A stretch of 33,799 nt of DNA from a virus (lineage: Duplodnaviria; Heunggongvirae; Uroviricota; Caudoviricetes), in IMG/VR virus record IMGVR_UViG_2537561934_000004; one strand, given 5' to 3'. Below the pieces are notes generated by a model, which worked only from the letters and a program-made list of their open reading frames with translations, did no database searches and was not told where the DNA came from. Both the position numbers and the translations under genes were made by a program. Shown here piece after piece: positions 3,345 through 33,799 of this stretch (positions are counted from its first letter, which is position 1; each line of letters starts with the position of its first letter).

Positions 3345-4465
3345 GGCGGCGTTTTCTCCGGGTGTCTGCGATAATAATCTTCAACCAGCGCATCAACGCC
3401 ATCATTACCATCCCCTCTGGATTTGCGGTCGCTTTCAACCGGCACCAGAAAGCCTTCGCGTGGTGCAAGGCTGACGCGGGTTTTCAGCCCGTCCTGGTCA
3501 TTCAGTATCAGGGTGACTTTGCTGACCAGTAATTCCGTGGTTTTGATGGCATATTTCGAGGCATCAATAGTGACCAGCAGGTTTGGCATCCAGAGTTGCC
3601 CGTCCTTGCGAGTCCATCCGTCAATTTCAGCCTCAAAGGTGATGGATTTTGCCAGTCTGCGGCGTTGCTCACGCAGGGCGCGGGCCTGTGCATCCTTCGC
3701 CGTAATTTTGCTGTCGGCAATGATGATCATCGGTCTGTAACGGGTTACATCACTGTCAGTGGCGGTCCCTTTCCGGGAGACGATACTTTTCGCATCAATA
3801 TCATCACCCTCAGCGCCGTTTGCGCGGGCATAACCCTTGACAATGTATTCGCTGAACCGGTCACGGAAATCTTCGTCAAAATCCACCGTCAGCAGATTTT
3901 TCCCGAGGATCAGCTCATCAGTGACCGTACTGGCAGCCCGGCTGAATACCAGCTCTCCGGCGGCATTGCTGGTCATCAGTACACCACGTGCGCGGGAGGC
4001 CCGCACCAGCGCTTCGTAAACCGTTTCTGAATGGTCAAGCGTAAAAGACGGAAACGACGCTGCGCTTTCCTTGTCTGACAGCTCCCAGCGAACGGTAACG
4101 CCATAAGGGGCGCACAGGTCACGCGCAATCTGCTCCAGTGTGCGGTTTTTCCACTGTCCGCCACTGTAAACGGCAGCACAGTCAATCAGGTCAGCCGTTT
4201 TGTCACGTCCGGCGACAGTGATTTTCATACTGTCAGCGGTCATCTGGCGTCGCCGTGAATCGATATAACCGGTGCAGACAATCTGCCCCCCGATTTCGAG
4301 CGTGAACTTCTTCCCCGGAGCCAGCCCGGATAAATCCGTGCCCGGTGGCACGTTCACCCCCAGCTCAAAATATCCGGCTACGGATTCAATCGAGCGGGTG
4401 ACAGAGACTGACGTCCAGCCGGTAAAAAGCCTGCCATCCGTTCGCAGCGTGACGGTATTACTCAT
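3332..4465 (-). CDS. P: Baseplate hub protein (Mu P / gp44-like)
   Basis: 377-aa ORF directly downstream of the DNA circularization gene, as in Mu (N then P). Confidence 0.75.
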
Positions 4466-5945
4466 TAATCACCTCAATACTGACACCACCGGGAACAAAC
4501 AACGGGTTGCTGATACCGTTCCTGCGGGCCAGCCGTTGCCAGTTCCGGCTGTTTCCTGTGTAACGGTACAGGGCCACCATTGCAGGCATCGTCTCCGGCA
4601 GACGGTGCGTTTCACTACCCGCCAGTTGCAGCCCGCGTTTTTCCAGGTCGGCAACAACCAGCAGACGCAGTTGCGTAAGCTGAACGCTGTCTGTCGAAAA
4701 GCCCTGCTCAGATGCCGTCAGAATGACGGTATCCAGCGCAGCCCCCAGCATGGCGGCTGTTTTTCCGATATCGGACACACTTTCAAATACCGGGGGCGTG
4801 GCTGTACCACTGTCTGAAAAGGATACCTGTGAAAAGCCGCCGTCCGGGGTTATGGCAGTTAACTGTAACTGTCCCTGTGTGACGGTAGCAGATGTGCTGC
4901 TGGCCCCGCTGGCTGTGCCGGTTGTGGTGGACGGGGCATCCAGTACAGGTGCACGGGCGGCATTATCCATCCGGCGACTGAAATCCAGTGCCGCAGTCAG
5001 TGCCTGGCTGGCAGCTTCTGCCCGGTATGTCTGCGCCGCTGCCAGCATGACGTAGTTCAGTGTGGCAATATTTTTTTCTGCAACCGGACTGTTGTACGAG
5101 GTTGTGATTGCCCCCTGTCTGCCTGCGGTGGCGGCATGGCGACGTTCGAACCGCTGCGCCAGACGGTTCCAGGTGGAAAATGCTGTCCGGGTATCGCATA
5201 ACGATGAAACGCCGGACAGCGCCCCCATCAGCGAGGAGGCCAGCATGGCAGGCTGGTTAATCAGGCCGGTCACAGAGCCTTTCATCGCAGAAAGCGATCC
5301 CATCAGACCGCTGACAGTCTGCGTAACCCCCAGATTGTCCACCGCATCACTGATATCATCGATGACACCGGTTACAGCTTCCATCACGGCGGTTGCCGCC
5401 GCAGTGCCATCTTTTACGGTCTGCCAGACAGAGGACAGCGTATCTCCCAGAGAACCGGTTACAGCAACGGACTGTGCCGGTACGGCTACACTGGTGTCTG
5501 TCTCTGCGTCCGGGGCAGTATCCTGCAACGACGGATAAACGGTAACGGTGAACGCGTAATAATTCAGTTCATCCGCTTTAGTGCGGCATTCCCATGAATC
5601 CACCATGACGGCCACAGTGCCGAAATCAGGATGTACCAGCTCACCGCTACCCGGAGCATCAAGAGCATCCATCAGCGCACCCGCTTCATCTCTGGCAGTC
5701 TCTGCGTTGCTGTTCAGAATGCAGATGCTGAATGTGCGGGAGCGAAGCTTTTTCCCCAGGTCGTTGACACCGCCGGTATCACGTAACGGGTACTCACGTT
5801 TAACCAGACGACGTCCGCCAGCCTGTTTTTGCTCCTCGATGACGAGAAACGGCACGTTACGGAACGTGCCTTTGCCGGTTGTTTTCCTGCCTCCACCGGT
5901 TTTATCCCGGACAGCATTAACGGCATTTAAAGCATCTTCAAACAT
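4458..5945 (-). CDS. N: DNA circularization protein N (Mu gp43-like)
   Basis: 495-aa ORF immediately downstream of the tape measure gene; size and position match Mu N. Confidence 0.8.
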
Positions 5946-23969: not shown

Positions 23970-23999
23970 TTGCTCACCTCTCATATTAAGGAATGAGAT

Positions 24000-24416
24000 A
24001 TGAAAATTGATTATGACGAGATAGCCAGAATATTTGATGTTTTTCTGGAGGCCGACACCGCATTCATTCGACTGGAAGATGTCGGCTGGGAGCGTTCTCA
24101 GCGGCACAGCGACAGCCATCAGAAGCTGGTTTTCCATCTTCTGTTGCTGGTTGAAAATGGTTTTATCAGCAACAGATATCTGGAAACAGGCACCGCAAAA
24201 AGCATTGGTCTCACCCCAACAAGCCTCGGATATTCATATTCAGGCACCAGTGTCAGACTTACACAAGATGGTCATGATTTTGCGAAAGCACTACATCAAA
24301 AACCCATTCTTGAGCGCATAAAACAGGACCTTGCCGACGCCCCGATGACGCTCGTAACAGACGTCGGCAAACAGTGGTTAACCTCGTTTCTTAAAAAGAA
24401 ACTCGGGATTGAATAG
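24000..24416 (+). CDS. Hypothetical protein (138 aa) on the strand opposite to the early operon
   Basis: ATG at 24000 preceded by AAGGAA 8 nt upstream; no internal stops. Its 3' end converges on and overlaps the 24378..24689 gene by 39 nt. No family recognised. Confidence 0.6.
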   Translation: MKIDYDEIARIFDVFLEADTAFIRLEDVGWERSQRHSDSHQKLVFHLLLLVENGFISNRYLETGTAKSIGLTPTSLGYSYSGTSVRLTQDGHDFAKALHQKPILERIKQDLADAPMTLVTDVGKQWLTSFLKKKLGIE

Positions 24417-24689
24417 TTCCCGGTTCATACGTTGCAGCACATCAAGGGCGGCGACAGCCGCCACTTTATCGTTACCATCAGCAATAGTGCGGAGATTTTC
24501 AATAATCCAGTGAGGACTCAGTGACTCAGCAATAATGCCAAACCGGTACGCCATGACTTCATCAATAGCTTTTTCATGAGACGGCTCATATACAAAATTC
24601 ACAAAGTCATGCACTTCTTTTTTCGGCAAACCACCGGCAATCAGCAGGGCGGCAAGCTCTTCTGATTTTGAAAATACACCATTATTCAT
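24378..24689 (-). CDS. Hypothetical early protein (about 103 aa)
   Basis: The ORF-track start at 24704 is a GTG; the first ATG is 24689 (MNNGVFSKSEELAALLIAGG...), preceded by GAAGGTGAG and abutting the upstream stop. Confidence 0.5.
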   Translation of the reverse strand: MNNGVFSKSEELAALLIAGGLPKKEVHDFVNFVYEPSHEKAIDEVMAYRFGIIAESLSPHWIIENLRTIADGNDKVAAVAALDVLQRMNRELFNPEFLFKKRG

Positions 24690-24690
24690 A

Positions 24691-25449
24691 TCACTCACCT
24701 TCACAATTCATGCACGCCGTGTCATCGCCCATATCGCAGTGGTTGCATTTCTGCCCACCACAATGAGGGCACTCTTTCAGATATTCAGGGTTTTCATTAC
24801 CGCAGGTCGGGCATTCCTGTTTCACCGTGGTGAATGTCCCCAGCCACGAATACGAATTTTCACCGACTGTCTTTTTCCCCGTTATTTCTGAATCAGAACT
24901 AATACAGTGTTTTTCAACCCATGCCACACGTGCTGAATTCAGGTGGCATCTGGCCAATTTGCTTTCGTTTCTGTAATGTTTGCTGTCCCGGTTAAATGGC
25001 AATTTCTCATTCAGCCCTGCTGAGATAAAGTCCGCATGTAATTGTTCTAATGCGGCTTCACTGTCTGCACCGGTTGATTCAAAATAATCGTAAGCATTGG
25101 CACATAATCCGGCAGCCCGGGTAAATACATCATCGCCCGTCTCCATTGCCCCATTCTTTAACCATCGGTTGTAGGCTGTATAAAAACTATAAAGTTGCTT
25201 TCTGATACAGGTAGTGGCAGTTCCGCCATTAACTGACGCTGGCGTAACATAGCCAGCTCTGCATAAAGCAGAACGAAGTATATCCAGAACCTGCCAGGCA
25301 TCTTCTCCTTCAATCACGCTACAGTTTTTGTACACCAGGACGTCCCGGCCACAACTTTTATCAATACCCCAGTCTTCAAATTTCACAACCAGCCTCCTGC
25401 ACCACACCCGGTGCTGATGAAAAATCAATGATGAGATAACGCAGTACAT
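24691..25449 (-). CDS. Hypothetical early protein with a C-terminal four-CxxC cluster
   Basis: C-terminus CPTCGNENPEYLKECPHCGGQKCNHCDMGDDTACMNCEGE. The ATG at 25449 overlaps the upstream gene by 74 nt; a GTG at 25386 has an AGGAGG 6 nt upstream and is the more likely start (231 aa). Confidence 0.6.
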   Translation of the reverse strand: MYCVISSLIFHQHRVWCRRLVVKFEDWGIDKSCGRDVLVYKNCSVIEGEDAWQVLDILRSALCRAGYVTPASVNGGTATTCIRKQLYSFYTAYNRWLKNGAMETGDDVFTRAAGLCANAYDYFESTGADSEAALEQLHADFISAGLNEKLPFNRDSKHYRNESKLARCHLNSARVAWVEKHCISSDSEITGKKTVGENSYSWLGTFTTVKQECPTCGNENPEYLKECPHCGGQKCNHCDMGDDTACMNCEGE

Positions 25450-25915
25450 GGTCGGTGATATTCCAGGCGCTGGAACTGCAAATAAACCGCCCCAGCCGGA
25501 TATCGATATAAGCCATCACAAAACGGGGCATTCCCTGTTTGCACATCTCGTCATCCACTTCTGCAACGATGTGAACGGACTCACAGGTCAGTACGCCTGT
25601 CGCAAACTCTTTTGCCAGTGCGGGGATGGTATTACCTTCCACCCAGGGTAATGAGCGACGCCAGTTGCACCACACCGCATCATCAACAGCAGGCTGCTCA
25701 GTTGCGTTTCGTCTTACCGGCGGCGTCTGACGCGGGCGCGGAACGTCATAAAATCCGTTGCATTCGGTGAGCACTCCGGCATCAACCGCATCACGCAGGA
25801 AATACACCATTGCGGAGGGTGGCATCTGCATTTTTTCAGCCAGAACCCCGCAGGTCAGGCGTCCGTAAGCCCGTAATAATGTGCTGACACCATTCAGAAT
25901 TTTTGCATCAACCAT
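25376..25915 (-). CDS. Hypothetical early protein with a possible N-terminal winged-helix domain
   Basis: 179-aa ORF with GAGGAA Shine-Dalgarno; the helix-turn-helix call on residues ~1-55 (LAEKMQMPPSAMVYFLRDAVDAGVL) is a visual impression only; Cys/Trp-rich C-terminal domain of unknown function. Confidence 0.6.
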   Translation of the reverse strand: MVDAKILNGVSTLLRAYGRLTCGVLAEKMQMPPSAMVYFLRDAVDAGVLTECNGFYDVPRPRQTPPVRRNATEQPAVDDAVWCNWRRSLPWVEGNTIPALAKEFATGVLTCESVHIVAEVDDEMCKQGMPRFVMAYIDIRLGRFICSSSAWNITDHVLRYLIIDFSSAPGVVQEAGCEI

Positions 25916-26013
25916 GTTTTATTCCTCAGTAATCTGTTTCAGGCGCGAGCAATCCCCTGACGCATCGCGCCATAATTAAAAGAATGTGAATTAATTAAAT
26001 ATTAATGGTGGTA

Positions 26014-26538
26014 TTAAATACCGGCTTCCTGTTCAAACGGAATAATGGAAAAATCTTCAATTCCCGATTTAACCGTAATTCCGGCAACACCTGCGACGGC
26101 TTTTGGTTCCAGTAAAATCGCCTCCTTGTTGATTTCCTGCTTCGTGCGAATAAAGCGTTGCAGGCCAAGACGCTCCAGCGTTTCCATCACTGCATCCATA
26201 CCACGAATACTTACTGATGGTGGACGGACCCGCCACGATACATCACCGGTGACAAGATTCGCCGTCTTCACTTTGCCGCCGTTCGTCAGTTCGTCGCGGT
26301 TCGCTTCACACCATCCCTGAACGCCTTTTGAAAGGGTTTCAATATCGGTTTTAATCGGTGCAATCCGGGCCGCAAATTTCTCCGTAATTTCCGCGATGGC
26401 ATCATTCATTTCCGTTTCCAGACGTGATGCTTCGCGCTGTAAATCCCCGATGCGTTTAATATCGGTAATCACCGCATCGCGGTTTTGTGGCACATAAGCC
26501 GCTGCGGCACTCTTGATACGTTTTGCTGGTTTAGCCAT
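26014..26538 (-). CDS. gam: Host-nuclease inhibitor Gam (DNA end-binding)
   Basis: 174-aa ORF of Mu Gam length in the Mu gam position; the sequence MAKPAKRIKSAAAAYVPQNRD... matches Mu Gam as I recall it. Confidence 0.9.
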   Translation of the reverse strand: MAKPAKRIKSAAAAYVPQNRDAVITDIKRIGDLQREASRLETEMNDAIAEITEKFAARIAPIKTDIETLSKGVQGWCEANRDELTNGGKVKTANLVTGDVSWRVRPPSVSIRGMDAVMETLERLGLQRFIRTKQEINKEAILLEPKAVAGVAGITVKSGIEDFSIIPFEQEAGI

Positions 26539-26557
26539 AAATTAAAGCTCCTGTTAA

Positions 26558-26857
26558 TTAATATCCGCTGTATACAATGCTGGATACAGCTCGATTGCTT
26601 AATTCCATCTTTCGGGCAATGACATGAATATCCAGCCCTTCTTTATAAAGTTCACGACATAAATATTTGTCGTGTTCACTGATTCGGTATACACACAATG
26701 ATATTCCGTGCCTTCTGGCATGTGCCCGGAGGGCGGTTGTGGCGACTTTCAGTTTTTCCGCCATTTCTTCAACGGTCATTTTCCCGACGTTGGCTTCGAT
26801 AAATTCCCGGTCTTCGCGTGACCAGCGCTTACGATTACACTTCATGTCAGCCACCAT
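26558..26857 (-). CDS. Small early protein with two helix-turn-helix-like segments
   Basis: 99-aa ORF between B and gam; segments WSREDREFIEANVGKMTVEEMAEKLKV and ISEHDKYLCRELYKEGLDIHVIARKMELS look like HTH repeats. Confidence 0.55.
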   Translation of the reverse strand: MVADMKCNRKRWSREDREFIEANVGKMTVEEMAEKLKVATTALRAHARRHGISLCVYRISEHDKYLCRELYKEGLDIHVIARKMELSNRAVSSIVYSGY

Positions 26858-27277
26858 TCAGTACAGCAGAGGCTCGCGCAGTGATGCCGGAATATGCCGC
26901 AGCGATAACTGAACCGCTTTCAGGGCAAGCGAGGAATAACAGCAGCGCGCCCAGCCTTTTGCCATTAACCGGTAATCGCGCCAGATACGCTGCCACATTT
27001 CACGGGCCTCAGGGTCTGATGCGCAGATGTATTCCCGGTCCATGACGTACTCCCATAAATCCACGTTGAACGCACCGCCAAATGCAATGGCGCGGGATAT
27101 GCTTTCGCCGCAATAACGCGCACAAATGCTGTAATGGTCGAAAGCAATCAGGTAAGTCTTTTCACCACAATCATCAACTTTCCGGGCGCAAATAAACTCG
27201 CGTAATTCACCACCGTTGTTATTGCGTTCCTGAATTCGGATTAATGCCTGAATTTCATTTCGGATTTTGACGTTCAT
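26858..27277 (-). CDS. Hypothetical early protein (139 aa)
   Basis: ORF abutting the downstream gene within the B-gam block; no recognised motif. Confidence 0.55.
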   Translation of the reverse strand: MNVKIRNEIQALIRIQERNNNGGELREFICARKVDDCGEKTYLIAFDHYSICARYCGESISRAIAFGGAFNVDLWEYVMDREYICASDPEAREMWQRIWRDYRLMAKGWARCCYSSLALKAVQLSLRHIPASLREPLLY

Positions 27278-27297
27278 TGTCAGCGTTCCTTTGCGAA

Positions 27298-27567
27298 TTA
27301 ATGTCTGGCTGTATTCGGGTTATAGCTGAATAATTCCCCCTCGGCTTCCAGCCCAAGCTCCCTGGCTGATTTCAACAACTCCTCGGTCGCTTTTTTAATG
27401 ATTTCAGGAGCCATGCTCTTGATGATGCCTGCCATTACATCATGTGGCCCGGTCTGGTCCTCAGGTGAGGATTCTTCCAGTCGCACATTCATATTTACGG
27501 CAAAACCTCCATTTTCCTGAAACTCAATATTTCTTGTATTGTTAAATTCAAAGATTACTTTTGCCAT
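27298..27567 (-). CDS. Hypothetical early protein (89 aa), acidic
   Basis: ORF in the B-gam block; no recognised motif. Confidence 0.55.
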   Translation of the reverse strand: MAKVIFEFNNTRNIEFQENGGFAVNMNVRLEESSPEDQTGPHDVMAGIIKSMAPEIIKKATEELLKSARELGLEAEGELFSYNPNTARH

Positions 27568-27587
27568 TTTTCTTCTCCTTATTGATT

Positions 27588-27833
27588 CTAAATAACTGCG
27601 CTGGCTTTTACCTTCGCGCCTTTTACCTGCTTAAAGAAAACTGCGCTGCACCACGGACAACATGTCAGGGAATCCCAAATTTCCTTTTCGTGTGAGCATT
27701 GCGTCATAATCTGTTCACCGCATCCGGGGCATTTATATGTCGTCAGCGGCACCCCGTGGCACTGACAGTGTTTAACCCATTCAATATATTTTTCAGCTTT
27801 AATACACATCGTTATCTCCAGATAATCTGACAA
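27588..27833 (-). CDS. Cys-rich putative zinc-binding small protein
   Basis: CxC and CPGC/CCPWC motifs (HCQCHG...KCPGCGEQ...CCPWC). Likely start is ATG 27809 (MCIKAEK...), which avoids overlap with the upstream gene. Confidence 0.55.
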
Positions 27834-28039
27834 CCATTAAGACGGGCCGTCCATACAGAACGGGCCACCCCGGACTTATGCTCCATAATCCTGACCGCGT
27901 TTTTTACCAGTTCCACCGGTGGGTAAGTGATTTCAAGAATCGGACGCGCCACGCCGAGATATGATTCATTTACATGACTCCCGCGCGCCTGTAACCAGTT
28001 CTGCGCATCCGTTGCCATTTTTATATTTCGGGCCATCAT
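27812..28039 (-). CDS. Kil-like small protein (first gene after B)
   Basis: 75-aa ORF at the position Mu kil occupies; assignment is by position and size only. Confidence 0.5.
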
Positions 28040-28054
28040 AATTTCTTCTCCTTC

Positions 28055-28993
28055 TTAATTACGCAGCAGCGTTGAAATATCAACGTCCAGGTCTAATTCA
28101 CGGAAAGCCTGACGCAGATAATCTTCGTTAACACGCTCACCTTTACCGTGAGCCGTCATGGCGGCAAGGCGAAGTGAATGATTCAGAATGCGAAGCGCAC
28201 CTGGTTTCTGCGCAATCTGCTGTAATAACTCCAGTTCATTTTCGCCGTTAATCTGCCAGGCATCCGCAATAGCTTTTACATCGGCTTTTTTTGTTTTATT
28301 AATTGCAGTGCGCTTTGCAATACGGGAAAACAGACGGGCAAATTCAACCGTTCTGTTACCCCCCGTCATATTTGAATAAACCCGGTGATTTCCCATCAGC
28401 ACAAGGCCAGTGCGGGTTGATTCCTGTAACAGGCGGAGTTCTTCCAGAACTTCGGCACCAAGATGATCAGCTTCGTCGATGATAACCAGCCCCTGTGTAC
28501 CTTCAAGGCGACGTCGCAGGGCACGGGAAAGTGGCCCTTTACGGCGTGGTGCGTCATTCATTCCCAGCTCAAACGCCAGTTCAGTAAGACATTCCAGAAC
28601 ACTGGCGCAGGATGGCGTAATGGTGATCATCCAGACATTGTTATTGGTGCGGCGATATTCACGGGCCGCTTCGGTTTTGCCCACACCAGGATTGCCACAT
28701 ACAACAGCAATACTTTCAGTCAGGCTGGCAAAACGCATACTTGTCCAGATTTGTTTTACCGTCTGCGTTTCCACAAAGCGGGGCGGTTCAGGTAGTTCTG
28801 CAACTGCATGATATTTTTCCAGCCAGCGTTGCAGCATTTGTGAAACACGCTCGTTATCCCCGTTGTACTTATCATTGATAAAACTACTGATAGTTCCGGT
28901 AGAAAGTCCGCTCTCAAGAGCAATTTGTTTAAAGGTGGTTTCTTCATTTTCTACAAGCGTGCGCAGTCCTGCGCGAATATCGGAAATATTCAT
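28055..28993 (-). CDS. B: Transposition target-DNA activator MuB (AAA+ ATPase)
   Basis: 312-aa ORF (Mu B is 312 aa) with Walker A GNPGVGKT and Walker B-like IIDEAD; immediately downstream of the transposase. Confidence 0.9.
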   Translation of the reverse strand: MNISDIRAGLRTLVENEETTFKQIALESGLSTGTISSFINDKYNGDNERVSQMLQRWLEKYHAVAELPEPPRFVETQTVKQIWTSMRFASLTESIAVVCGNPGVGKTEAAREYRRTNNNVWMITITPSCASVLECLTELAFELGMNDAPRRKGPLSRALRRRLEGTQGLVIIDEADHLGAEVLEELRLLQESTRTGLVLMGNHRVYSNMTGGNRTVEFARLFSRIAKRTAINKTKKADVKAIADAWQINGENELELLQQIAQKPGALRILNHSLRLAAMTAHGKGERVNEDYLRQAFRELDLDVDISTLLRN

Positions 28994-32298: not shown

Positions 32299-32706
32299 CC
32301 CGATTATATTTCCCGCTACGGGAAGCCAGAAACGATCGACGATTTAAAGCAACATATTTGCCTGGGATTCACTGAACCCGCTTCCCTCAATACCTGGCCG
32401 ATAGCCCGTAGCGATGGACAATTACATGAGGTGAAGTACGGTTTGTCATCCAATAGTGGGGAAACACTGAAACAGCTTTGCCTGAGTGGCAACGGGATTG
32501 CGTGTTTGTCCGACTACATGATCGACAAAGAAATCGCTCGCGGAGAATTGGTGGAGTTAATGGCAGATAAAGTGTTGCCAGTGGAAATGCCATTCAGTGC
32601 CGTCTATTACAGCGACCGTGCGGTAAGTACGCGCATCCGGGCTTTTATCGATTTCCTTAGCGAGCATGTAAAAACAGCTCCCGGAGGAGCTGTCAGAGAG
32701 GCTTAA
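32299..32706 (+). pseudogene. yafC: LysR-type regulator gene (yafC-like) truncated at its 5' end by the prophage
   Basis: The frame translating ...[56 protein letters not shown]... is open from the prophage junction to the stop at 32706. It has no start codon or N-terminal helix-turn-helix; only the C-terminal effector domain remains. Convergent with dkgB as in E. coli. Confidence 0.75.
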
Positions 32707-33506
32707 TCCCATTCAGGAGCCAGACCTTCCGGGCTAACCAGGCGGTCGTTGCAATCCAGTGCGGCGATCGCTTTTTTATCTTCGGCATCAAGCTGTAAAT
32801 TTTGTGCCTTAAGATTACTTTCCAGGTTTTTACGTTTAGTAGAAGAAGGAATTACTGAGTAACCTTCCCCCATAGCCCACGCCAGAATCACTTGTGCCGG
32901 AGTCGCATTGTGTTTAGCTGCGATACGAGCAATAACCTCATCTTTCAGGGCCTTACCATACGCCAGCGTCATATAGGAAGTAATATGGATGCCGTGCTGT
33001 TTAGCCCAGGCAACCACTTTACGGTTTTGCAGATAAGGAGAGAGTTCAATCTGGTTAGTAGCGATGTTTTCAGCACCAACAGCAGCAATCGCTTTTTCCA
33101 TCAACGGGATCGTGAAGTTGGAAATACCGATCTCACGCGTCAGCCCTTGTTTTTTGGCTTCCAGCAGCGCCTGCATAAACTCTTCAACAGAGACTTCATC
33201 GTTTGGTGACGGCCAGTGGATTAGCGTCAGATCAACATAATCGGTACGCAATTTTTGCAGGCTCTCTTTCAGACTTGGGATCAATTTGTCTTTGCTGAGA
33301 TTTTCAATCCAGATTTTAGTGGTGATGTAGAGTTCATGACGTGGCACGCCACTTTCTGCAATCGCCTGACCTACTGCGGCTTCGTTATCATAGATTTGTG
33401 CGGTATCAATTGCGCGATAACCAAGTTCAAGCGCCGTTATCACAGATGAAATAACAACGTCGTCTTTCAGACGGAAAGTACCTAAACCAAATGCAGGGAT
33501 AGCCAT
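32703..33506 (-). CDS. dkgB: Aldo-keto reductase, 2,5-diketo-D-gluconate reductase B
   Basis: 267-aa [21 protein letters not shown]... with aldo-keto reductase motifs ([27 protein letters not shown]); length equals E. coli DkgB. Confidence 0.9.
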
Positions 33507-33628
33507 AATATGCCTCTTTTAATGCTATTTTCGTTAACTGAGGTGATTATGGGCTTCAGACTGTTGAGGAAAAAGAGCGTAAAATGCAGAGGATTTTTGC
33601 GATTCTGGCAATAATAGATATACAGACG

Positions 33629-33656
33629 AAAAAAAACCTCGAGCGTTAACTCGAGG
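33629..33656 (-). terminator. Rho-independent terminator downstream of tRNA-Asp
   Basis: Minus strand reads CCTCGAG-TTAACG-CTCGAGG followed by TTTTTTTT, about 12 nt after the tRNA 3' end. Confidence 0.7.
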
Positions 33657-33668
33657 CTTCTTAATAAG

Positions 33669-33745
33669 TGGCGGAACGGACGGGACTCGAACCCGCGACC
33701 CCCTGCGTGACAGGCAGGTATTCTAACCGACTGAACTACCGCTCC
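33669..33745 (-). tRNA. aspU: tRNA-Asp (anticodon GUC)
   Basis: Minus strand reads GGAGCGGTAGTTCAGTCGGTTAGAATACCTGCCTGTCACGCAGGGGGTCGCGGGTTCGAGTCCCGTCCGTTCCGCCA (77 nt, encoded CCA), anticodon loop CUGUCAC. The symbol aspU is inferred from adjacency to dkgB; it could be another Asp copy. Confidence 0.9.
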
Positions 33746-33799
33746 ACCGAATTCTTTTACAACCACCGGTTTTATGACCGGCTTACTGCTTAATTTGAT

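Follow-up and report, generated by a model that had tools for sequence, protein, structure and literature searches.

The five tightly packed open reading frames which fill the interval between B and gam at positions 26558-28039 of the minus strand of the analyzed window (the whole stretch of 33,799 nucleotides) are, judged by the identity of their DNA, the already catalogued genes kil, 6, 7, 8 and 9 of a D108-type Mu prophage of E. coli. The semi-essential early region of Mu and D108 begins with this block. It is highly probable that it represents the first part of this region in a D108-type Mu prophage residing in an E. coli chromosome, and that it constitutes a host-takeover and accessory module. 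Such a module would be expressed at induction or infection and would stand outside the transposition machinery. All five ORFs are standard textbook content for Mu and D108 and therefore add no new element. The upstream flank is formed by the gene of the transposition ATPase B (28055-28993, minus strand), identified by Pfam matches to Phage-MuB_C (E 6.5e-34) and AAA_22 and by the D108 annotation, and the downstream flank by the gene of the host nuclease inhibitor Gam (26014-26538, minus strand; Pfam Phage_Mu_Gam, E 4.1e-42; D108 annotation). Positions 26400-28200 of the window are identical to positions 4099-5899 of D108 (100% DNA identity), where the five genes are annotated. The initial annotation had described five small ORFs between B and gam and had assigned the interval to the region in which Mu carries kil and other small genes. 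Both statements are confirmed by the 100% DNA identity to kil-9 of D108, by the minus-strand orientation and D108 annotation of all five ORFs and by their dN/dS values of 0.09-0.28. Among the D108 genes of the block only kil has a published phenotype; the Mu counterpart of gene 7 (gnarl2) also has one. For the remaining genes of the block the functions given here are inferred.

All five genes are under purifying selection. Pooled pairwise dN/dS ratios, calculated from 12-29 distinct alleles per gene with dS reaching up to 0.8, were 0.09 for kil, 0.27 for gene 6, 0.18 for gene 7, 0.18 for gene 8 and 0.28 for gene 9, and the ORF lengths were kept across these alleles. Shine-Dalgarno sites precede four of the five genes, while gene 9 instead abuts the stop codon of gene 8, and the coding density of the block is 97%. 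That four of the five proteins have neither a function nor a curated family and that gp8 is limited to one narrow phage lineage might be taken to mean that chance reading frames or annotation artefacts are among the five ORFs. With the low dN/dS of every gene at such dS values, the conserved lengths, the ribosome binding sites, the start of gene 9 adjoining the stop of gene 8 and the high coding density all speaking against it, this idea has next to no probability. ORFs on the plus strand which overlap the block (e.g., 26667-26912 and 26818-27045) were read as antisense artefacts, as the signal of selection sits in the minus-strand frames. The block is without matches to RNA families in Rfam.

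In Mu, one early transcript is described as spanning the semi-essential region (PMC3820752), and neither promoter-like nor terminator-like sites were predicted on the minus strand inside the block. On the basis of this literature and of the absence of predicted signals, the long early (Pe) transcript appears to include kil, 6, 7, 8 and 9 along with A and B. The intergenic gaps of 0-20 nt would be tight enough for coupled translation. The genes of the semi-essential region are still largely uncharacterised and, as a block, lethal to the host (PMC3325207, PMC3820752, PMC8705779), in agreement with what had been said beforehand about small early proteins of transposable phages. After infection with MuBam, viability was regained once the region had been deleted (PMC3325207).

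The first gene after B, kil (gene 5 of D108 and Mu; 27812-28039, minus strand), starts 15 nt after the stop codon of B on the same strand, is preceded by an AAGGAG Shine-Dalgarno site and encodes a basic protein of 75 aa (pI 10.2). It had initially been noted as Kil-sized, and the likeness goes considerably further: the annotated Mu Kil has 74 residues, and each of them is found unchanged in the protein of the window, whose residues 1-75 match phrog_2743 (E 2.8e-43). By this identity, the protein is the known host-killing protein of Mu. The alignment to Mu and D108 thereby revealed, in part and at least for Kil, the close identity to a Mu protein of assigned function that the initial annotation had named as evidence against its view. 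Kil is the first gene after B also in D108, Mu and Klebsiella-type prophages, and homologues with 49-53% identity occupy the same position in Mu-like prophages of Klebsiella, Raoultella and Pluralibacter. According to PMC3961180, which cites Waggoner 1989, Mu Kil turns host cells spherical and does not lead to filaments; killing of the host without phage replication is described in the literature (PMC3961180, PMC3325207). The rounding of the cells is probably brought about by a block of cell elongation. The FtsZ-directed division inhibitors Kil of lambda and KilR of Rac share with Mu Kil the name and the lethality within an early operon, but they cause filaments rather than spheres and, according to PMC3961180, have no sequence similarity to it. 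In view of this, the database label "septation inhibition" on Kil of Mu and D108 seems to be a carry-over by name. Filamentation, which had been suggested as readout for a kil-like gene, is the wrong choice for Mu Kil, and the phenotype to score is cell rounding.

A comparison with related prophages revealed a conserved frame of Kil and gp9, found in every related prophage examined, with genes 6, 7 and 8 as cargo which is present, absent or exchanged between them. For this comparison 46 IMG/VR loci were retrieved, of which 44 span the whole interval; as they were fetched with gp8 as query, the cargo frequencies are biased to gp8-positive phages. In prophages of Klebsiella, Raoultella and Pluralibacter, B and Kil are followed by at most one variable ORF and then by gp9, and a prophage of E. 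coli AF60 exhibits the order B, Kil, gp7, gp9, Gam. The layout of Kil, variable genes and gp9 serves as a simple guide when accessory genes are to be collected from Mu-like prophages.

The first cargo gene, gene 6 (27588-27809, minus strand; 73 aa), begins with an ATG located 2 nt after the kil stop codon and preceded by GGAG. A longer form listed among the ORFs (81 aa, TTG start) runs into kil and was rejected as an over-extension. The protein matches phrog_3786 (E 1.2e-41) and carries the motifs CPGC and CCPWC. The initial annotation had suggested zinc binding from CxC, CPGC and CCPWC motifs. This holds for the latter two: the putative ligand cysteines C27, C30, C51 and C54 are conserved down to homologues of 32-34% identity, with the exception of a Shewanella Mu-like phage, in which position 27 is occupied by T and a CC lies next to it. 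It does not hold for CxC, as the CQC motif is, together with C2, C38 and C50, not conserved among homologues. A WD motif is conserved in Chi, KPP25 and the Shewanella Mu-like phage. Sub-threshold matches to zinc ribbons were obtained with TIGR02605 (E 0.0014), NF047912 and PDB entry 6ydh. None of the curated cut-offs was reached by TIGR02605 (18.6 vs. 31.3 bits), NF047912 (14.4 vs. 37 bits) or DUF7459 (15.9 vs. 27 bits). On the basis of the conserved motifs and the sub-threshold matches, gp6 is a candidate for a zinc ribbon of the type CPxC...CPxC. The family is also found in Chi-like and Pseudomonas phages, and gp6 would be a small zinc-ribbon protein whose family is passed between unrelated phages. 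At the 44 related loci gene 6 is intact in 25, replaced by an unrelated ORF of 70 aa in five, absent in 13 and disrupted in one.

Gene 7 (27298-27567, minus strand), which encodes an acidic protein of 89 aa (pI 4.8), is the single one of the five genes that differs from Mu, a difference on which the initial annotation was silent, as it was on the gnarl2 phenotype of the Mu counterpart (PMC12373910). A blastn comparison of the window with Mu yielded two blocks, 25901-27292 and 27535-28300, each about 97.7% identical, and nothing between them. The gap marks a replacement cassette of 242 bp (27293-27534; strand not assigned) without DNA homology to Mu, with one end at codon 12 of gene 7 and the other 5 nt beyond the stop codon of this gene. 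The slot, which has gene 6 or kil on one side and gene 8 or gene 9 on the other, and its flanking DNA are the same as for Gnarl2 of Mu (E6/Mup07, NP_050611.1; Silas et al., Nat Commun 2025, PMC12373910), the expression of which shifts O-antigen bands downward (PMC12373910). The Mu allele of gnarl2 also sensitises ECOR strains to T5 (PMC12373910). A literature search on Mu early genes by locus tag, accession and old name (cim, arm, sot, lig) retrieved nothing beyond two papers of Silas et al. on Mup07, and no entry for the D108 allele turned up in the text-format supplementary files of PMC12373910.

The two proteins are similar in size (89 aa for D108 gp7, 87 aa for Gnarl2) and identical in their first 8-11 residues, but differ in PHROG family, charge and hydropathy. 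The gp7 of the window belongs to phrog_2230 and that of Mu to phrog_10252. Judged by these assignments, D108 gp7 is a member of a family other than that of Gnarl2 and a different, acidic protein; most likely it would be a binder of a host envelope or defence factor. The slot might be a plug-in effector site of Mu-type phages, in which an invariant N-terminal strand, MAKVI(F/I)E(F/I), retained as protein sequence by every class, is combined with interchangeable bodies of about 78 residues, the D108 body being a second, mechanistically distinct effector; we put this forward as a tentative idea only. If it is true, the D108-class body may hit an envelope-biosynthesis or defence target other than that of Gnarl2, and D108-type lysogens would acquire a different superinfection or serotype phenotype. 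Alternatively, D108 gp7 could be a very diverged orthologue of Gnarl2 with the same O-antigen activity, i.e., an old allele and not a different effector. The same position and near-equal length, the N-terminal motif present in both with a dN of 0 despite a dS of 0.3-0.5 in both classes, and a shared C-terminal His (a minority of alleles end in Tyr) would fit this alternative, as would a global hhalign alignment that runs end to end with 24% identity and the beta-hairpin and long helix predicted for the D108 allele. The probabilities of the hhalign alignments are, however, just 26% (global) and 43% (local), the latter covering residues 1-13 only, and no homology of the window gp7 to NP_050611.1 beyond residue 13 could be demonstrated by hhalign or PHROG. 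In addition, PHROGs, which cluster by remote homology, assign the two proteins to different families, the near neutral and more hydrophobic Mu protein (GRAVY +0.06) contrasts with the acidic and hydrophilic D108 protein (GRAVY -0.51), and the conserved ends fall at recombination junctions. Orthology with retained activity is, taken together, possible but doubtful.

For the D108-class gp7, 36 homologues were found, all from Escherichia or Salmonella where the organism is named, and matches occurred in only six of 50,697 phage records. A slot protein from Klebsiella exhibits weak similarity (38%) to this class. The 44 related loci comprise 15 D108-type, 10 "FEFTW" and 19 Mu-type alleles, and the Mu class and the D108-type subclass are each found behind all three upstream contexts. 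Within gene 7, the dN/dS rises from 0.18 overall to 0.53 in codons 10-35. The AlphaFold model of D108 gp7 is poor (pLDDT 61.4), and a Foldseek search of the PDB with it gave a best E of 2.9. A Pfam match to RraB (E 0.0098) was below the cut-off, had no other support and was discarded.

Gene 8 (26858-27277, minus strand; 139 aa) encodes a protein which matches phrog_3690 and for which no match was found in Pfam, NCBIfam, PADLOC or PDB. A profile search of 1.84 billion cluster representatives returned 11 matches with a single full-length cluster; informative remote relatives were not among them, two weak matches being to short proteins. The gene is absent from the prophage of E. coli AF60 and from Klebsiella-type prophages. 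By these matches gp8 is an orphan whose occurrence is limited to Mu-type phages of Enterobacterales. Its AlphaFold model (pLDDT 46.5) is, like that of gp7, not usable, as the alignments are too shallow.

The presence or absence and the allele swaps of genes 6, 7 and 8 between conserved flanks are the signature by which phage accessory genes have been found, many of them counter-defence genes (PMC12373910). This, the occurrence of the gp6 family in virulent phages that are unrelated (e.g., Chi and KPP25) and the raised dN/dS of 0.53 in the variable part of gp7 might indicate that the three genes counteract specific anti-phage systems and are not general modifiers of host physiology. Yet the sole tested allele of the slot, Gnarl2, acts on the O-antigen and on no intracellular defence system (PMC12373910), dN/dS never exceeds 1, and profile and PDB searches revealed no similarity to known anti-defence proteins. 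A dedicated counter-defence role appears rather unlikely on this balance. PADLOC models gave no meaningful match for the five proteins, apart from two faint ones for gp9 (E about 0.01), a result that says little on an anti-defence role as the library is without anti-defence genes. In a PDB sequence search, none of the five proteins had a significant match.

The last gene of the block, gene 9 (26558-26857, minus strand), comprises 99 aa as ORF, and its first ATG follows directly on the stop codon of gene 8 (TGAATG). A second ATG at 26845, which is preceded by GGTGG and is used by most homologues, is the more likely start, giving 95 aa. Residues 5-98 of gp9 match positions 142-244 of 319 in phrog_323, a "transcriptional regulator, D5-like" (E 6.9e-29). 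Ten Pfam and eight NCBIfam models, mostly of helix-turn-helix (HTH) or DNA-binding type, matched gp9, all of them below their cut-offs, with HTH_Tnp_1 (19.8 bits, cut-off 24.1) and RWP-RK (19.7 bits, cut-off 29.3) scoring best. The HTH matches group into two separate stretches (about residues 9-62 and 64-98), which fits two HTH units, so that the two HTH-like segments seen initially in one ORF are recovered here by several sub-threshold models each. The C-terminal unit, LCRELYKEGLxIxVIAxKMELS, is near invariant down to 46% overall identity. These features make gp9 a candidate two-HTH DNA-binding protein, which would probably act as a regulator. In phage Mu_3F6, gp9 bears the RAST label "COG1209 dTDP-glucose pyrophosphorylase". 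A link to sugar metabolism was dismissed, as the protein has 95 residues and is HTH-like.

Whereas the genes between them vary, Kil and gp9 themselves are constant: each of the 44 IMG/VR loci spanning the interval carries both, as do nine of nine loci from Klebsiella, Raoultella and Pluralibacter, in several of which the two are directly adjacent with a gap of 2 nt. Together with the DNA-binder features of gp9, this could point to a functional pair in which gp9 limits the expression or toxicity of Kil, either as DNA-binding regulator or as antidote. We regard this as improbable. What links the two genes is synteny, the presence of gp9 is partly built into loci that were fetched with gp8 or gp9 as query, Mu kills its host despite gene 9 (PMC3325207), and conserved borders are expected anyway, as homologous recombination requires conserved flanks.

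Compared with known phages, the block is closest to D108 (NC_013594, 4260-5741; EP-D108_gp05-gp09, i.e., kil, 6, 7, 8 and 9), with which it shares identical DNA throughout as well as gene order, spacing and the flanks B and gam. Identity to D108 drops to 95.8-98.3% in the remainder of the window and genes 12-14 are partly replaced, which is why the window is regarded as a D108-like prophage and not as D108 itself. With Mu (kil, Mup06-Mup09; E5-E8 in older records) the block has the gene order in common, and protein identities amount to 100% for Kil, 97% for gp6, which is three residues longer in Mu, 96% for gp8 and 99% for gp9, but to only 23% for gp7, the gene of which is swapped from codon 12 through the stop relative to the window. 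Beyond the Mu-type phages, the putative zinc-ribbon proteins of phrog_3786 (e.g., chi_037 of Chi and ORF037 of KPP25) share with gp6 the CPxC...WD...CPxC core and 32-34% identity over most of its length, although the Chi-like and KPP25 carriers of this family are not transposable and some of them are virulent. As the gp6 family is common to virulent phages, a single functional result would extend to many phages.

Five consecutive ORFs were called on the minus strand between B (28055-28993, minus strand) and gam (26014-26538, minus strand), which confirms the five small ORFs of the initial annotation (26558-28039). From 26400 to 28200 the DNA matches phage D108 (NC_013594, 4099-5899) at 100% identity, and the D108 annotation names these ORFs kil, 6, 7, 8 and 9. 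Elsewhere in the window the identity to D108 is 95.8-98.3%, and the whole window is a D108-like prophage rather than D108 itself. The left end of D108 (D108 position 1) corresponds to 32298, and the last 1.5 kb (32299-33799) are E. coli chromosome carrying dkgB, yafC and a tRNA-Asp (GTC; 33669-33745, minus strand). As bacterial chromosome lies beyond the left end, the window represents an integrated prophage and not a phage genome record. Compared with Mu, the products Kil, gp6, gp8 and gp9 are 100%, 97%, 96% and 99% identical, respectively, and gp7 only 23%. Both the observation and its initial reading are sound, but the five-gene feature is already catalogued in these two model phages. Among 5,426 complete E. 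coli genomes, 92 harbour Mu-type prophages with the region, about half of them in the full five-gene version. Further along the early region, the only part of 23970-25388 that aligns with D108 is a gene 13-like piece (24680-24862). ORFs of 252 aa (24691-25449, minus strand; phrog_6418, with a C-terminal zinc-ribbon-like CxxC cluster), 108 aa (24378-24704, minus strand; phrog_1988) and 138 aa (24000-24416, on the opposite, plus strand; phrog_585) are found there, and the stretch resembles a further mosaic patch of accessory genes.

Inspection of the coding strand revealed a plausible ribosome-binding context at all five starts, with AAGGAG upstream of kil (27812-28039, minus strand) and gene 7, and AAGGA upstream of gene 8. 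Since gene 6 has an ATG at 27809 (minus strand), 2 nt past the kil stop, with GGAG upstream, its product comprises 73 aa and is not the 81-aa TTG form of the ORF list. Gene 9 has an ATG directly adjoining the stop of gene 8 (TGAATG) and, four codons downstream, another one preceded by GGTGG; the latter is the annotated start of most gp9 homologues in the databases (95 aa). Neither a sigma-70-like promoter nor an intrinsic terminator was predicted on the minus strand of 25900-28300, and no Rfam family matched within the block. Going by the Mu literature, kil to 9 would be co-transcribed from Pe. Pooled Nei-Gojobori dN/dS ratios from 46 fetched related viral contigs were 0.09 for kil, 0.27 for gene 6, 0.18 for gene 7, 0.18 for gene 8 and 0.28 for gene 9, with 0.08 and 0.09 for the flanking B and gam. 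These low ratios are informative, as synonymous divergence reaches up to 0.2-0.8. All five ORFs are real, selected genes.

The first ORF after B, initially noted as Kil-sized, turned out to carry the actual Mu Kil sequence, identical at every residue (phrog_2743, E 2.8e-43). PHROGs and RefSeq name this product "Kil protein for bacterial septation inhibition". A passage in Haeusser et al. (PMC3961180, after Waggoner et al. 1989) states that Mu kil has no sequence relationship to the kil genes of lambda and Rac and leads to spherical cells, pointing to a block of cell elongation. The septation label conflicts with both statements of that passage and was apparently transferred along with the name that these genes have in common. 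Lethality and cell rounding by Kil are derived from the literature; upon deletion of the whole semi-essential region, hosts were viable again after MuBam infection (PMC3325207).

At the other end of the block, gp9 matches phrog_323 ("transcriptional regulator, D5-like"; E 6.9e-29). The two HTH-like segments proposed for one of the ORFs were recovered in this protein by many HTH models, all with sub-threshold scores: HTH_Tnp_1, RWP-RK, Sigma70_r4_2 and HTH_17 at about residues 9-62, and GerE and HTH_40 at about residues 64-98. The C-terminal unit is nearly invariant even at 46% overall identity. Weak links were obtained to Cbp1, a multi-HTH CRISPR repeat-binding protein, and to PDB chain 2lvs_A; the deposited entry describes the latter as uncharacterised, and we take it to be a CRISPR repeat-binding protein as well. 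Judged from its sequence, gp9 may bind DNA. Homologues from Pluralibacter gergoviae (L054 5001-5462 and L058 2815-3297, loci with their own coordinates, as for all L-numbers; 153-160 aa) have a doubled N-terminal HTH-like unit, and these three-unit proteins recall multi-HTH repeat-binding proteins. The label "COG1209: dTDP-glucose pyrophosphorylase" on the orthologue of phage Mu_3F6 (LR595867.1, L003 659-946) is hardly credible for an HTH-like protein of 95 residues and probably an annotation error.

Mu-like prophages of Klebsiella, Raoultella and Pluralibacter contain B, Kil (41-54% identical), no or one unrelated small ORF, and gp9 (47-57% identical), followed by DUF3164 instead of Gam in those loci whose gene calls were read. 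These reduced intervals show that Kil and gp9 form the conserved frame, with genes 6, 7 and 8 as exchangeable cargo, which fits the description of this phage region as poorly conserved and rich in small uncharacterised proteins (PMC8705779). Small ORFs between Kil and gp9 lie at L056 2725-2982 (Raoultella), L058 2552-2818 (Pluralibacter) and L057 2708-2977 (Klebsiella). One such spacer product has about 86-89 aa and the N-terminus MET(K/A)KITAYAWASGLIEFG; another one (89 aa, MPIIIIDIV...H) bears a weak likeness to D108-class gp7 (hhalign probability 38%). The block as a whole would serve host takeover.

Within the cargo, gp6 has nine cysteines, of which only C27, C30, C51 and C54 are conserved, together with a WD motif, in 16 distinct alleles and in remote homologues (32-34% identical) from phage Chi, Pseudomonas phage KPP25 and a Shewanella Mu-like phage, the latter with its first cysteine shifted. 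As for the zinc binding suggested for this Cys-rich ORF, the four-cysteine pattern is kept, whereas the CxC motif (CQC) varies, as do C2, C38 and C50. Zinc-ribbon matches stayed below threshold (TIGR02605, E 0.0014, and NF047912, both below the curated one; PDB 6ydh, weak), and gp6 is a putative zinc-binding protein. Its family is widespread, with 107 records of phages that are for the most part Chi-like and infect Salmonella, and lies amid runs of small hypothetical genes in Chi (chi_037, L062 1465-1737) and KPP25 (ORF037, L063 1450-1701). As these two are not transposable, this zinc-ribbon family passes between phages of very different kinds. Among the 44 IMG/VR loci spanning the interval, whose frequencies are biased towards gp8-positive phages, gene 6 is intact in 25, replaced by an unrelated 70-aa ORF (phrog_3375) in five, absent from 13 and disrupted in one; it is dispensable in Mu-type phages. 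On one Mu-type contig (L017 3468-3655) it is broken into pieces of 42 and 33 aa, as fits a dispensable gene.

Searches of Pfam, NCBIfam, PADLOC and PDB yielded no match for gp8, whose homologues occur only in Mu-type prophages of Enterobacterales. When 1.84 billion cluster representatives were searched in full with a HMMER profile, a single full-length cluster came up, besides several fragments and two short, weakly matching relatives. Only C52 and C56 (CARYC) are conserved cysteines, and the predicted model is unusable (pLDDT 46.5). As the E. coli AF60 prophage lacks gp8 (order B, Kil, gp7, gp9, Gam), the gene is optional.

Besides the Kil-gp9 frame, the interest of this region rests on the D108-type gp7. 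Gene 7 is the sole difference from Mu within the block: homology to Mu DNA is lost at 27534 and returns at 27292, and the exchanged 242 bp extend from codon 12 to 5 nt beyond the stop. The same 44 gp8-biased loci carry 15 D108-type, 10 "FEFTW" and 19 Mu-type alleles, the "FEFTW" type being 40% identical to the D108 type and sharing its PHROG. Both the Mu class and the D108-type subclass are preceded by all three upstream contexts, which indicates that gene 7 is shuffled by recombination. Variability peaks at codons 10-35 (dN/dS about 0.5). The peptide of the first 8-9 codons (27535-27567 and matching positions of the related loci L005-L048) is invariant in every allele class, with synonymous changes present. 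The D108 class is rare (six of 50,697 phage records); its 36 database clusters all derive from Escherichia or Salmonella where the source names an organism.

Silas et al. gave the name gnarl2 to the Mu occupant of this slot, E6/Mup07 (NP_050611.1), which moved O-antigen bands downward and made ECOR strains T5-sensitive (PMC12373910; bioRxiv 10.1101/2023.04.06.535777). The D108 class was not found in the text-form supplementary files of that study. An AlphaFold model of D108 gp7 (pLDDT 61) suggests a beta-hairpin and, after it, a helix of 30 residues; a structure search with this model gave no match. We infer that D108 gp7 may act on the host envelope or on a defence factor. It is conceivable that the D108 and Mu proteins are one extremely diverged gene, given their nearly equal lengths, a C-terminal His in most alleles of both classes and the shared N-terminal MAKVI(F/I)E(F/I). 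The latter shows zero amino-acid change at a dS of 0.3-0.5 in both classes alike; the peptide itself is under constraint, and not only the recombination junction. However, profile-profile comparison aligned only residues 1-13 (probability 43%; 26% in global mode). With this short alignment, 23% identity and separate PHROGs, 2230 for D108-type gp7 and 10252 for Mu gp7, the D108 type falls outside the Gnarl2 family.
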